Of a DNA stretch of 61,624 nucleotides, positions 6,004 to 33,647 are shown one piece after another. The notes under the pieces were generated by a model. That model was not told the DNA's origin. It saw only the letters and a program-made list of their open reading frames with translations, and did no database searches. Position numbers and translations under genes: made by a program. Source of the stretch: an uncultured Acidobacterium sp. (GTDB lineage Bacteria > Acidobacteriota > Vicinamibacteria > Vicinamibacterales > UBA2999); NCBI GenBank assembly GCA_964350785.1, contig CAYGMD010000003.1, positions 1 through 61,624 on the forward strand. The letters are read 5' to 3'. Positions within the stretch are counted from its first letter, which is position 1; each line of letters opens with the position of its first letter.

Positions 6004-6019
6004 TGTGAGTCACCTCACT
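6004..6019. promoter_or_regulatory. CRP/FNR-type box TGTGA-gtcacc-TCACT
   Basis: One mismatch to the CRP consensus; upstream of the GH63 start, which has TAACGT 6 nt before its GTG. Confidence 0.55.
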
Positions 6020-6599
6020 TCAACGGCAGATGAGGTGCGGGGGCGTCGCGCGGATGCGGGGGCATCCCGTCTTCGAGGTCCACGCCGAGCCCGTCGGCCA
6101 CACGGTTGATGTAGTTGAAATAGCTGACGATCTGCACCGCATCCGAGACGGCGCGGTCATCAAAACCCTCAGCTCGAAGCGCCACGACATCGTCCTGGAT
6201 CATGGCTGCCGGCTCGGCGGTCAGCTTGACGGCGAAGGCGAGCAGCGCGCGGTCGGCGGGCCCCAGCGGTGCCTTCGTCCAGTCCGTTTTCACCTGCTCC
6301 ACCAGCTCCGGGTCGTCGACCTCGGCACGGAGGTCGTCGGCATGCGCCTCGGTTCAATAGTGGCAGCCGTTGGTCCGCGAGACGACCACGGCCAGCATCT
6401 CTCGCTGCGCCCTGGTGAGGGGCGACCGCCCGCGCATCAGGGCGGCGTAGAGCGCCGTCGAGTGCTTCATCGCCGGCGGGTTGAGGCTCTTGATTCGAAT
6501 GATCTGCCACACCTTGCCCGCGCGGGCCAGCGCGGCGTCGTACTCGGCTCGCAACAACCCGGTGGCTTCGGCCACCGGCTTCAGATCGATCCAGGCCAT
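6015..6599 (-). CDS. AhpD/CMD-family selenoprotein (CxxU), Sec at UGA 6354-6356
   Basis: ORFs 6354..6599 and 6015..6302 are in frame: NGCHY-TGA-TEAHADD. The UGA sits at the second Cys of the AhpD CxxC; downstream hairpin present. Confidence 0.88.
6317..6336 (-). other. Putative bacterial SECIS hairpin
   Basis: CGACCUC-CGUGCC-GAGGUCG, 7-bp stem; loop starts 24 nt after the UGA. Confidence 0.7.
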
Positions 6600-7686: not shown

Positions 7687-9210
7687 TTACCGCGTCCATC
7701 GAAAATACCGCTCGAACCACCGCTTCACCGACGGCGTCAGCAATCCTCTCCGGTAGGCGTCGCCGGCCTTCTTCAGCGCCTCGGCCTGCGTCGGGTACGG
7801 ATGGATCGTCGCCGCCAGATCACCCAGCGAGCCACCGTGCGTCACGACATACGAGGCCTCCCCAATCAGGTCTCCCGCATGCGCCGCGACGATGGTGCAA
7901 CCGAGAAGCCGTCCGCCCACGTGATGCAAGCGCACAAACCCCTCCGCCTCTTCGTCGAGCACCGCGCGATCGACCTCGGCCAGTTCAATCGTGATCGTCT
8001 TGACGTCATGGCCCTTCTGGCGGGCCTCGGCTTCATACATCCCGACGTGCGCGATTTCCGGATCGGTATACGTACACCACGGCACGACCAGCGCGCTCGC
8101 CCGCTTGCGCCCGTAGAACAGCGCATTCTGAATGACGATGCGCGCCATGGCGTCGGCGGCGTGAGTGAACTTGTACTTGGAACACACATCGCCGGCGGCG
8201 TAGATGCGCCGGTTCGAGGTCTGCATGCGGTCGTTCACCACGACGCCGGCCTTGGTGACGGCCACGCCGGCCGCGTCGAGGCCGAGTCCTTCGATGTTCG
8301 GCGCGCGGCCCGCCGCCACGAGTATCTGGTCACCACCCGCCGCTCCCGACCCGGCGCCGTCGCGGCGCTCGTACCGGATCCGCACACCGGCCGCATCGCT
8401 CGTGGCCTCGACCAGCTGGACACCGAGCTCCAGCCGCACGCCGTCCTCGAGGAGTTGGCGCTGCACGATCGCCGCCGCATCGGCGTCCTCGTTGGGAAGC
8501 ACGTGCGGTGGGCGACCGAGCAGCGTGACCTCGCTGCCGAATCGCGCGAAGGCCTGCGCCAGCTCGCAGCCAATGGGTCCCGCGCCGACCACGATGAGCC
8601 GCGGCGGCAGTTCGGTGAGCCAGAACACGGTCTCGTTAGTGAGGAACGGAATGCCGTCGAGGCCGGGTACCGGCGGGGCGATCGGGCGGCCGCCGGTGGC
8701 GACGACCGCACGGTTGAACTTCAACGTGCGGCCGGCCACTTCGAGGGTGCGCGCGCTCGTGAACGCGCCGCTGCCCAGGAAGACGTCCACCCCGGCGCGC
8801 TGCAAGCGCTGCACCGAGTCGTTGACGCTGATACCGGCGCGGCGCTCACGCATTCGGCGCATGATGGCGGGGAAGTCGGCCTCGACCGGCCCAATGCGGA
8901 CGCCGATCCTGGAAGCCCGGCGCGCCTCGGCGATGGCGCGCGCCGACCGGATGAGCGCTTTCGACGGCACACAACCGACGTTGAGGCAGTCACCGCCAAG
9001 CAAGCCCCGCTCGACAAGCGCCACGCACGCGCCGAGGCCGGCGGCGCCGACGGCACTGACCAGGCCAGCAGTTCCGCCGCCGACGACGACGAGGTCGTAG
9101 ACATCTCGCGGCTCAGGATTCTCCCAATCCGATGGATGAACCGCCTGGAGCAGCGCCTGGTTGGCCGCGTCGAGCGGCCGCACCAGTGGATGGGGCGTGG
9201 TCGTCGTCAT
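7687..9210 (-). CDS. Mercuric-reductase-like pyridine nucleotide-disulfide oxidoreductase
   Basis: GGGTAG, GGDCLNVGCVPSK, GAGPIGCE, IHPYPT; no HMA domain and no C-terminal Cys-Cys. Confidence 0.88.
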   Translation of the reverse strand: MTTTTPHPLVRPLDAANQALLQAVHPSDWENPEPRDVYDLVVVGGGTAGLVSAVGAAGLGACVALVERGLLGGDCLNVGCVPSKALIRSARAIAEARRASRIGVRIGPVEADFPAIMRRMRERRAGISVNDSVQRLQRAGVDVFLGSGAFTSARTLEVAGRTLKFNRAVVATGGRPIAPPVPGLDGIPFLTNETVFWLTELPPRLIVVGAGPIGCELAQAFARFGSEVTLLGRPPHVLPNEDADAAAIVQRQLLEDGVRLELGVQLVEATSDAAGVRIRYERRDGAGSGAAGGDQILVAAGRAPNIEGLGLDAAGVAVTKAGVVVNDRMQTSNRRIYAAGDVCSKYKFTHAADAMARIVIQNALFYGRKRASALVVPWCTYTDPEIAHVGMYEAEARQKGHDVKTITIELAEVDRAVLDEEAEGFVRLHHVGGRLLGCTIVAAHAGDLIGEASYVVTHGGSLGDLAATIHPYPTQAEALKKAGDAYRRGLLTPSVKRWFERYFRWTR

Positions 9211-9284
9211 GCGTTCCTCAGACCATGTACGCGGTGGTGTCTTGAGGCTTCGCGGTGAAGTGCAGCCCCTGTGCCCGGACGACG

Positions 9285-9457
9285 GGCACCTTCTTCGGAT
9301 CACACCCGCGCAGCGCGCACGTGCCGCCGAACGGCTGCTTGCCGATCATCGCGACGGTCCACCCCGCGCCGCGGCACCGCGACGCGACGCTGCCGGCCGC
9401 GGATCCGGAACCAATCACGATCAGGTCGACGGCGCGAGGCGTCATCACTTGAGGCAT
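9285..9457 (-). pseudogene. N-terminal remnant of a glutathione-reductase-like flavoprotein
   Basis: VDLIVIGSGSAAG...FGGTCALRGCDPKK then loss of homology. Confidence 0.7.
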
Positions 9458-9520
9458 GGAAAGAGCATAGCCCGCAGCGGCCCTCGCGCCGCGACGCGCG
9501 TGCGGGTAACCGTCGCGAAC

Positions 9521-9536
9521 AGTGAGGCGCGTCACA
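9521..9536. promoter_or_regulatory. CRP-type box AGTGA-ggcgcg-TCACA (class II position)
   Basis: Centre 9528.5 is 41.5 nt before ATG 9570; -10-like TATCGT at 9558-9563. Confidence 0.7.
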
Positions 9537-9569
9537 GCAGGGATGGAGTGGCGCCCCTATCGTTGGGCG

Positions 9570-10547
9570 ATGGCCCACGTCGTTGAGTTCTTCTACAGCG
9601 AACACTGTATCGGCTGTCCGGAGGCGCGGCAGGTCGTCAGACAACTGGCGGCGGCGAGGCCGGATATCGCGATCGCCGAGTTCGATATCGCGACGCACAT
9701 CGATGAAGCCGGCCGGCATGGCTTGATTGCCACGCCGGCAGTGGTCATCGATGGCGGCCCGGCGCTCTATGGGATTCCTCGGATTTCGGATCTGGCCGCC
9801 CGGTTGGACGGACCGTCGGCTCGGGCTCGCGCGAGTGGTGAACGGCCGCTTATACTGTCGGGGATGGCGGCCCACACCAAGCTTTGGTACCTGCAGCATT
9901 TCCGTTTGCTGGAGGCCCTCACCGACGTCCAGAAGCGCGCCGTCGAGAAGATGACGCGCATGCTGGAAGTCAAGCGCGGCCAGCGCATTTACCTCCCGGG
10001 CGATCCGAGTGACCAGATCTTCCTGCTCAAGACCGGGGTGGTGAAGATTTCGACAGGCGGCGCCGAACAAGATACCATCCTGGCGTTGCTCTATCCGGGC
10101 GACATCTTTGGTGAGCTCGCCATGCTCGACGAGTCGCCGCGCGATCACATCGCCGAGGTCGTGGAAGACACCGTCCTCTGCGCGCTCAATCGAGACATGC
10201 TGCTGCAGATGATCCAGCAGTCGCCTGCGCTCGGCTACCAGATCACCAAGCTCATGGGACTGCGGTTGCGCCGCCTGCGAACGCGGGTCGAGGAACTGCT
10301 GTTCAAGAGCGCGCATGCCCGCATCGCCCACACCCTGCTTGACCTCGCCGCCGACTACGGCGTCAAAGACGATGATGGGGTGCTGATTCCGATTCGCTTG
10401 AACCAGGGCGACCTGGGCAACCTGGTCGGCCTGGCGCGTGAGACGGTGAACATCGTTCTGCAGGACCTGAAGCAGCGAGGCCTCGTCGAGACCAGCCGCC
10501 AGAACATCCGCCTCAAGAGTCCGGAGCTGCTGCGCGCGGTCGTGTAG
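9570..10547 (+). CDS. Thioredoxin-like (CxxC) domain fused in frame to a CRP/FNR regulator
   Basis: FYSEHCIGC...ATPAVVIDG, then from Met 9864 a cNMP-binding domain (FGELAMLDESPR) and HTH (LVGLARETVN). No stop between the two parts. Confidence 0.8.
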   Translation: MAHVVEFFYSEHCIGCPEARQVVRQLAAARPDIAIAEFDIATHIDEAGRHGLIATPAVVIDGGPALYGIPRISDLAARLDGPSARARASGERPLILSGMAAHTKLWYLQHFRLLEALTDVQKRAVEKMTRMLEVKRGQRIYLPGDPSDQIFLLKTGVVKISTGGAEQDTILALLYPGDIFGELAMLDESPRDHIAEVVEDTVLCALNRDMLLQMIQQSPALGYQITKLMGLRLRRLRTRVEELLFKSAHARIAHTLLDLAADYGVKDDDGVLIPIRLNQGDLGNLVGLARETVNIVLQDLKQRGLVETSRQNIRLKSPELLRAVV

Positions 10548-10554
10548 CGCCATC

Positions 10555-10620
10555 GTGAAACGCATCCTCGCGTTCGACGTCAACGACACGCCGCTCGACG
10601 TCCGGGCCCTCGAGACCTCG
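10555..10620 (+). pseudogene. N-terminal remnant of haloacid dehalogenase type II
   Basis: GTG-KRILAFDVNDTPLDVRALE resembles the HAD-II motif I region; only about 20 codons. Confidence 0.45.
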
Positions 10621-10654
10621 GTGGAAAGACGGCAGGGCGCCAACAGGCGATGAT

Positions 10655-11236
10655 GTGAAGGACCTCACATTCTGTTGCCGCCACGCCGACCTGCTGGCGA
10701 TTCAACAAGCCGCCAAGGGTGCCGCGACGCTGACCGGTAATCTGCTGGGCGTCGCGCGCCGGTACAGCGCCGGTGCAACCTACGCCAGCGTGACCGACGT
10801 GCTCAGCGCACCGTTGGACAACCTCGCGCGCGAGTTCGCCAGGCACCACATCACCGTCGAAACCGACTTCAAACCGGCGCCGGCGCCGAACGTCGACCTC
10901 AACTTGCTCTCCCAGGTGTGCCTGAATCTCTATCTCAACGCGCGGGACGCCATGATTCCGAAGGGCGGCGGCACGCTTCGCGTGTCGCTGCGTGGCACGG
11001 CTGACGGCATCGAGTTCACGGTGACCGACACCGGCACGGGCATTCCGGAAGCGTTTCGCTCGCGTATCTTCCAGCCCCTGCAATCCACCAAGGGCGATCG
11101 CGGCACCGGGCTCGGGCTCTCGGTCTCGAAGTCGGTCATTGAATCGATGGGGGGACGCATTCGATACGAGTCGGTCGAGGGCCTGGGCACATCATTCTTT
11201 GTCACGCTGCCGACGGACCCGCCGGGGCGGGCGTAA
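10655..11236 (+). pseudogene. Histidine kinase C-terminal (HATPase_c) fragment
   Basis: N box LNLYLNARDAM, G1 VTDTGTGI, G2 GTGLGLS; no H-box or sensor domain. Confidence 0.7.
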
Positions 11237-33631: not shown

Positions 33632-33647
33632 TGTGAGCGGAGTCACA
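33632..33647. promoter_or_regulatory. Perfect CRP-type box TGTGA-gcggag-TCACA (class II position)
   Basis: Centre 33639.5; TATGAT at 33670-33675; GTG 33680 / ATG 33683. Confidence 0.75.

Follow-up and report, generated by a model that had tools for sequence, protein, structure and literature searches.

The window examined here, a stretch of 61,624 nucleotides of contig CAYGMD010000003.1 from a groundwater acidobacterium of the order Vicinamibacterales, carries an open reading frame (ORF) in which a small thioredoxin-like (Trx) domain is joined to a transcription regulator of the CRP/FNR family. Judged by comparison with related loci, this fusion is the product of a recent stop-codon loss in a conserved cassette of two genes, trx and crp. 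We think it likely that the loss occurred in a two-promoter cassette from which both a fused and a CRP-only isoform are probably made, and that the fusion itself is neutral or nearly so.

One frame for two domains

A single frame on the plus strand extends from GTG 9522 or ATG 9570 to the TAG at 10545-10547, and translation from 9570 is free of stops until 10545. ATG 9570 is the likely start and is aligned with the trx starts of the relatives; GTG 9522 was rejected as a start because it sits within the CRP box described below and is not conserved as a start in relatives. Searches against Pfam identified, in one protein, Thioredoxin_3 (27.2 bits, cut-off 24.8, spanning aa 26-87 of the 341-aa version), the cNMP beta-roll (cNMP_binding, PF00027; 69 bits, cut-off 27.5) and the winged helix-turn-helix HTH_Crp_2 (PF13545; 61.5 bits), and PF00325 also matched the CRP part at 30.1 bits. 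In NCBIfam there was sub-threshold similarity only, to the CRP, NtcA and FNR equivalogs and to the MJ0307-type thioredoxin. The initial annotation had described one 325-aa frame joining a CIGC thioredoxin fold to a CRP domain; the frame check and the Pfam matches bear this out, and the observation as a whole was confirmed in its four parts, namely the frame, the domains and the two promoters. The features are collected in Table 1.

It might be supposed that the single ORF is an artefact of assembly or sequencing, or that nothing but the CRP part is ever expressed, the open frame before it having no meaning. By an estimate from base composition, at 67% GC a run of 30 codons would be free of stops by chance about half the time, and the gene stems from a metagenome-assembled genome of 375 contigs. 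However, the exact sequence is present in contigs of eight runs from two studies, and when the independently built contigs of 4 runs (two per study) were compared over 9450-10100, we found 0 substitutions and 0 gaps, which excludes an assembly error at the junction. In addition, there is no stop between 9570 and 10545, and the Trx domain is in relatives an intact, conserved and separately called gene with its own conserved promoter and start. The artefact explanation is thus already largely refuted, and we regard it as extremely improbable.

Table 1. Features of the fused locus and of its upstream flank (AF2, AlphaFold2; pLDDT, predicted local distance difference test score)
Feature	Position	Strand	Evidence
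Fused ORF: Trx-like domain, linker and CRP; 325 aa plus TAG	9570..10547	+	Pfam; AF2 mean pLDDT 88.1
Thioredoxin_3 / MJ0307-type domain, aa 1-82	9570..9815	+	PF13192; 1fo5 match; AF2
Linker, former trx tail plus intergenic DNA	9816..9863	+	DNA alignment; low pLDDT; rare codons
CRP/FNR-family regulator, 227 aa; cNMP_binding ~9966-10220, HTH_Crp_2 ~10317-10538	9864..10547	+	Pfam; orthologues; Foldseek
CRP-type palindrome aGTGAggcgcgTCACa, centre 9528.5	9521..9536	.	41.5 nt before trx ATG 9570; 71.5 nt before divergent ATG 9457
Putative P1 -10 hexamer TATCGT, 6 nt before ATG 9570, leaderless-type geometry	9558..9563	+	Sequence; related loci
Putative P2 -10 hexamer TATACT, 7 nt before ATG 9864, internal	9851..9856	+	Recurrence in related loci
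79-aa N-terminal stub of a flavoprotein disulfide reductase, divergent from trx	9218..9457	-	Pyr_redox_2 below cut-off, 47 aa

Loss of the trx stop codon

In the DNA alignment at 9819-9827, the window reads GCT CGG GCT, whereas the sister locus L015, which comes from the same genus and is 99% identical in its CRP part, reads GCA TAA CGC. A contig of run X9 (~93% identical) has GCT TGA at the same place, with its stop at codon 9822-9824, and L001 and L016 have GAG TAG, their stop being aligned one codon before that position. Elsewhere the former spacer has diverged, and the window linker is 3 nt longer than that of L015. In the maximum likelihood tree, which was built on the CRP parts, the window is sister to the split L015 (support 98/94). 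Since the nearest relatives are split with a stop at 9822-9824, the stop codon appears to have been lost recently in the window lineage. The initial annotation had offered a linker of former intergenic DNA and recent loss of a stop as the alternative to its own proposal; given the stops in L015, the X9 contig, L001 and L016, this alternative is the right one for the present genome.

The codons of the linker are in keeping with such a history. In the fused frame the hexamer TATACT is read as CTT ATA CTG, and CTT makes up 3.5% of the Leu codons and ATA 1.0% of the Ile codons in the genome; such rare codons over TATACT are what one would expect of DNA that was non-coding until recently. In the proposed sequence of events, the sense codon CGG (9822-9824) would have replaced the trx stop and, with the genes already in the same frame, trx, spacer and crp would have become one 325-aa ORF. 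A fusion common to near relatives and retained through long divergence, as a selected one should be, is not what the window lineage displays, as both L015 and the ~93% identical relatives are split; it is found only in a separate deep clade of eight sequences.

The trx-crp cassette in related genomes

In Vicinamibacterales the two genes form a cassette in which a small MJ0307-type trx is followed 18-53 nt downstream by crp, and their close linkage was seen in more than 30 loci. Most of the matches among 5.8 billion proteins searched were CRP-only, 227-228 aa long and of Vicinamibacterales or other acidobacterial origin, with identities of up to 92% in the CRP part; a minority were full-length fused ORFs of 328-349 aa with 54-65% overall identity. 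Two shorter proteins, P0109 (297 aa) and P0115/L053 (307 aa), are also fused, their called starts having been placed too late. On the contigs of the closest CRP-only proteins (L001 and L002), a separate Thioredoxin_3 gene of 84 and 92 aa, respectively, lies directly upstream of a 227-aa crp. Among 37 whole genomes of the same genus the gene is present in 3, and in the two others the alignment covers the full 325 residues in one frame, interrupted by one internal stop (TAA or TAG). A genome of another family has TGA as its single in-frame stop. The loci L015, G025 and G048 all align in one frame with one stop each.

These alignments bear on the direction of the change. The fused state could be ancestral, with the split loci as fissions, or split loci that are in frame could still make the fusion by stop read-through. 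Programmed read-through was indeed suggested by the first 5 loci, all of which were in frame; it was set aside after 9 out-of-frame loci had been found and was kept as a rival of low probability. Across the distinct split loci, 14 are in frame and 9 out of frame, where one third in frame would be expected, a comparison in which shared ancestry is uncorrected. This excess (14/23), seen despite a spacing of Trx motif and crp start that varies over 258-294 nt, the occurrence of single in-frame stops of all three kinds, and the retention of an internal Met/Val start and of P2 in fused forms could each be read in favour of an ancestral fusion or of read-through. However, L044, L046 and L047, a clade with ~93-94% identity to the window, are among the 9 out-of-frame loci, the tree nests the fused states within split ones, the frame excess was counted without phylogenetic correction, and no read-through signal was seen, none having been looked for. 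We therefore consider an ancestral fusion, or continued read-through, quite unlikely.

Putative promoters of the cassette

The initial annotation had placed a CRP box centred 41.5 nt before ATG 9570, and a second -10 hexamer 7 nt before Met 9864 that could allow a CRP-only isoform. To compare these elements, 121 related loci were fetched and counts were made in distinct loci, and both proposals held up. GTGA-N6-TCAC was found upstream of trx in 23 of the 27 distinct loci. The distance from the box centre to the trx start was 41.5 nt in 11 loci, the window included, and 42.5 nt in 7, so that 18 distinct loci fall in the same distance class. A TAnnnT hexamer stands 6-7 nt before the trx start in relatives, and the sequence of the spacer between box and hexamer is unconserved. 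For P2, the exact hexamer TATACT lies 6-8 nt (6 or 7 in all but one) before the ATG or GTG of crp in 25 of 27 distinct loci, and it is kept in 8 of the 9 fused loci while its flanks vary freely. Taken together with the enrichment of boxes reported below, the box-start distance in 18 loci and the recurrence of TATACT in 25/27 amount to more than chance.

A scan of the candidate start codons of long ORFs with high GC content at third codon positions extended this to the whole genome (G000). TANNNT occurred 177 times at spacer 6 and 116 times at spacer 7 against a background of ~35, a 3-5x excess, and this peak suggests that leaderless-type promoters are common here and probably serve a sizeable fraction of the genes. 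The full geometry of box, -10 hexamer and start was found at only 3 sites in the genome, suggesting that the regulon as a whole does not share the strict class II leaderless arrangement. Full-text literature searches on leaderless promoters in Acidobacteria found nothing specific. The terminator scan found none between the Trx domain and ATG 9864; its three weak matches all lie in coding sequence (at the trx start and within crp).

The arrangement at P1 corresponds to a class II, CRP-activated geometry with a transcript that would start at the start codon, the distance being counted on the assumption that transcription begins at the A of ATG. P1 would then be subject to positive autoregulation and give an mRNA for Trx-linker-CRP, while P2, now inside the ORF, would give a leaderless mRNA for the ordinary CRP of 227 aa. 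Two isoforms would probably be made in this way, and both homo- and heterodimers would be possible. A -10 box for a leaderless mRNA that is kept in very rare codons inside an ORF is also relevant to the annotation of isoforms in leaderless-rich phyla.

Other fusions

The initial annotation had set its proposal against a situation in which all relatives encode two separate genes. This is not what the tree revealed, as fusion has occurred independently at least twice elsewhere, in one case giving rise to a deep, long-maintained clade. The fused state requires at least three origins: the window; P0002, which is sister to the split L018 (support 99/93); and a clade of eight distinct fused sequences (support 100/99) that has diverged internally as much as the split group as a whole. 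Three spacings between the Trx motif and the start of crp occur in this deep clade (294, 312 and 327 nt), and each of them preserves the frame. Over the 10 fused sequences the first active-site Cys and the cis-Pro are invariant, and so is a YG.P motif; in one subclade of the deep clade (L024, L031 and L124), CxxC has turned into CxxS (CPAS).

Most members of the deep clade encode TATACT as the rare pair TAT-ACT; in the window genome, TAT accounts for 21% of the Tyr codons and ACT for 2.4% of the Thr codons, which multiply to 0.5%. P2 has been lost in two lineages of the clade, L122 (2668-2710), where a Shine-Dalgarno-like GGGAG lies 9 nt before the internal ATG, and L126 (3190-3212), where AGTACT stands in place of TATACT. 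In these two lineages CRP is probably made mainly as the fusion. The loss of P2 with retention of the fusion suggests that the Trx-CRP architecture is viable, can be maintained and can be functional. Maintenance in the deep clade does not, however, show that the young fusion of the window is adaptive.

The two modules

Profile match, CxxC, cis-Pro and predicted fold all place the N-terminal part in Thioredoxin_3. The CIGC active site is encoded at 9606-9617 (aa 13-16), and the cis-Pro motif is ATPA, with TP at aa 55-56. A sequence search of the PDB found MJ0307 (1fo5, E 2.5e-7) and MTH807 (1nho) to be closest. The AF2 model has the Trx topology beta-alpha-beta-alpha-beta-(beta)-alpha at pLDDT 89-98, with predicted strands at 3-9, 33-39 and 57-60 and helices at 16-29, 44-49 and 72-80. 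Proteins of the MJ0307/MTH807 type (Thioredoxin_3, TIGR00411; 1fo5, 1nho) share with the window domain a minimal Trx fold of ~80 aa, a CxxC that opens helix 1 and a cis-Pro loop. However, those proteins stand alone, whereas here and in the deep sister clade a transcription factor begins with this domain; the window domain scores 34.9 bits against the TIGR00411 equivalog, far under the cut-off of 92.75. When the Trx domain was searched against 1.84 billion representative proteins, 81 matches were obtained, mostly stand-alone proteins of 80-130 aa, and the sole CRP-fused representative among them was P0026, which represents the deep clade; this suggests that the architecture is confined to the present Trx-CRP family. 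Two relatives of the Trx domain, P0137 (256 aa) and P0134 (227 aa), carry C-terminal fusions to other partners, such as a CMD/AhpD-like domain in P0137, and the small module seems to be prone to fusion with genes of redox islands.

The structure used here is an AF2 run on an alignment of 65 sequences, which replaced a poor run on 10 sequences (pLDDT 62.8) that was not used for the CRP part. Mean pLDDT was 88.1 and the predicted template modelling score (pTM) 0.65; the CRP part reached ~85-97 and residues 90-98 fell under 50. The model indicates two folded modules on a flexible tether, the Trx domain being held by a predicted disordered linker of ~20 aa. Foldseek matched the CRP part to Mycobacterium tuberculosis (Mtb) CRP and Corynebacterium glutamicum GlxR with template modelling scores of 0.91-0.92 over ~222 columns; among solved structures it returned no PDB chain that covers both modules. 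Likewise, full-text literature searches found no description of a Trx-CRP fusion.

By domain content, predicted fold, recognition helix and putative operator (the predicted boxes), the C-terminal part is a member of the CRP/FNR family. The best match of these 227 aa in both sequence and fold is to Mtb CRP (Rv3676; 3i54/3mzh) and C. glutamicum GlxR (3r6s/4cyd), and the closest by sequence is Mtb CRP (phmmer E 4e-29). In common with them the window CRP has the cNMP beta-roll, the long dimerisation helix, a RETV recognition helix and an operator of the TGTGA-N6-TCACA type; the RE of the recognition helix that the initial annotation had pointed out is present, as RETVN aligned with the RETVN of Mtb CRP. 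However, identity to these proteins is only ~26%, no solved CRP has the N-terminal Trx-like domain, and the predicted targets are thiol and peroxide genes, not those of carbon metabolism. The effector pocket differs as well. A cNMP pocket with GE..R retained had been claimed; the Gly-Glu and the Arg of the phosphate-binding cassette are indeed kept, but the Ser/Thr after the Arg is replaced by Asp (PRDH) in 15/15 aligned members, where the cAMP-binding relatives have Thr or Ser (PR(T/S)S in Mtb CRP and GlxR). The PRDH cassette makes the effector uncertain and the binding of cAMP doubtful, and strict membership in the cAMP-responsive CRP group is likewise doubtful; the genome holds 2 genes with class III cyclase domains.

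The window CRP has a single Cys, C106, which is found also in relatives without trx. Two cysteines of the deep fused clade are missing from it: Cys166, present in every member, and Cys148, which is not confined to that clade. A fusion-specific partner Cys for the Trx domain was sought in CRP and both candidates were rejected: Cys148 occurs also in split and trx-less relatives, and Cys166, specific to the deep fused clade and one trx-less sequence, is absent from the window and lends no support here.

Candidate regulon

GTGA-N6-TCAC occurs 7 times in the window against 0.9 expected, a number reached in 0 of 100 shuffles, and 150 times in the genome, where base composition would predict ~47. The seven sites of the window lie at 6005, 6790, 9522, 10655, 15073, 33246 and 33633, and the genes flanked by them encode a CMD/AhpD-like protein, a VTT/DedA protein, a flavoprotein disulfide reductase (Pyr_redox_2), G6PD, 6PGD, an extracytoplasmic function (ECF) sigma factor and an AhpC-DsbD_N peroxiredoxin. 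Among the seven boxes, only that at 9522 has the strict -41.5 leaderless geometry; at 33633 a TATGAT stands 7 nt before an ATG and the box centre is at -43.5. The CRP is predicted to recognise TGTGA-N6-TCACA boxes that cluster around its own gene and precede thiol/peroxide, NADPH-producing and selenoprotein genes. A probable selenoprotein is encoded by the CMD/AhpD-like gene, which lies at 6015-6599 on the minus strand and has an in-frame TGA (6354-6356) in its active-site motif, RTNGCHY-U-TEAHADDL (CxxU). The genome also has a selB match of 324.7 bits (curated cut-off 242).

Functional coupling and rival explanations

The thiol and selenoprotein genes of the candidate regulon, the tight linkage of trx and crp and the repeated fusions make both a functional coupling of Trx and CRP and a redox gating of the CRP plausible. 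Regulators of the CRP/FNR family sense cAMP, O2, CO, NO, 2-oxoglutarate or their own disulfides. The redox-sensing members include FNR, which has a [4Fe-4S] cluster, CprK, which forms a Cys11-Cys200 disulfide, and FLP of Lactobacillus casei, all of them CRP-fold regulators that respond to redox via cysteines. However, they sense by cysteines or clusters inside the CRP fold, whereas here a Trx-fold module, whether separate or fused, would be the candidate sensor and CRP has one Cys. The nearest functional analogy is perhaps SigR/SigR' of Streptomyces coelicolor, a thiol-stress regulator with genes of the thioredoxin system in its regulon; its short isoform comes from a constitutive promoter and its N-terminally extended isoform from an autoregulated one upstream. 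Both systems would have two promoters and two isoforms of a thiol-stress regulator, but SigR belongs to the sigma factors and not to the CRP family, it is not extended by a folded Trx domain, and its arrangement is ancestral and characterised, whereas that of the window arose from a recent stop loss.

We tentatively propose, as a possibility that falls well short of probable, that Trx and CRP form a dedicated thiol-switch pair. Trx might monitor or restore the redox state of CRP, or serve as its co-factor at promoters, and the repeated fusions would be Rosetta-stone evidence of an interaction. In fused lineages, that of the window among them, the autoregulated P1 would give a tethered sensor-regulator and P2 free CRP, with a SigR/SigR'-like feedback on a thiol/peroxide/selenoprotein regulon that operates without cAMP.

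A stronger version would hold that the fusion is an adaptive redox-gated regulator in the window too, in which the tethered Trx reduces, oxidises or forms a mixed disulfide with CRP or a partner, and in which the long isoform from P1 differs from the short one from P2 in DNA binding or activation, giving a feedback loop. Several findings speak for it: close linkage of trx and crp is seen in more than 30 loci, fusion has at least three origins with one deep clade maintaining it, two lineages of that clade (L122 and L126) lack P2 and would make CRP mainly as the fusion, the CxxS subclade looks like a variant for trapping or sensing, the 10 fused sequences all keep the first Cys and the cis-Pro of Trx, and thiol and peroxide genes make up the candidate regulon. 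Several features of the window speak against it. Its fusion is very young, the sister at 99% CRP identity being split; its linker contains the genome's rarest codons; its CRP has only C106 and neither Cys166 nor Cys148; and the AF2 model has no confident docking of the modules, with a disordered linker and a pTM of 0.65. An adaptive redox gate in this genome therefore seems improbable to us.

A recent stop-codon loss in a two-promoter cassette, with a fusion that is most likely neutral or only mildly consequential, is thus the reading we prefer. Several points weigh against it. The activity of the promoters, the leaderless starts, the production of both proteins and the autoregulation are inferred from conservation, a search for RNA sequencing runs with this locus having found none. 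Because the fusion is a single recent event, selection on it cannot be gauged. The in-frame excess of split loci may hint at selection on the frame or at stop read-through and not at pure drift, and PRDH in place of Ser/Thr sets the regulator apart from its cAMP-binding relatives and leaves its effector uncertain.

If the window fusion is simply neutral, it is an ordinary snapshot of gene fusion by stop loss. The split L015 and the fused window allele differ by little more than the stop codon and form a natural before/after pair for the effect of tethering. Beyond this genome, the independent fusions and the deep clade with its partial loss of P2 argue that both proteins work together, and such a functional link would be a handle on the control of the thiol/peroxide/selenoprotein island in an uncultured acidobacterial group.

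Flanking sequence

Upstream of the cassette, the divergent reductase stub (Table 1) matches Pyr_redox_2 at 23.4 bits (cut-off 26.1, E 4.7e-5) over 47 aa only. It keeps GxGxxG and CxxxxC and then breaks off, and its ATG is preceded at 6 nt by a TATGCT. The full reductase gene next to the stub (7687-9210) has an orthologue in L001 and L016 that directly adjoins trx, suggesting that the stub marks a rearrangement upstream of the cassette.

Downstream of crp, the region 10550-11236 on the plus strand has a fragmentary look, with an ORF that has HATPase_c only and neither a sensor nor a complete dimerisation domain. A full TGTGAaggaccTCACA box lies at 10654-10669, and a short stretch downstream of crp, VKRILAFDVNDTPLDV, resembles the N-terminus of a HAD-hydrolase.

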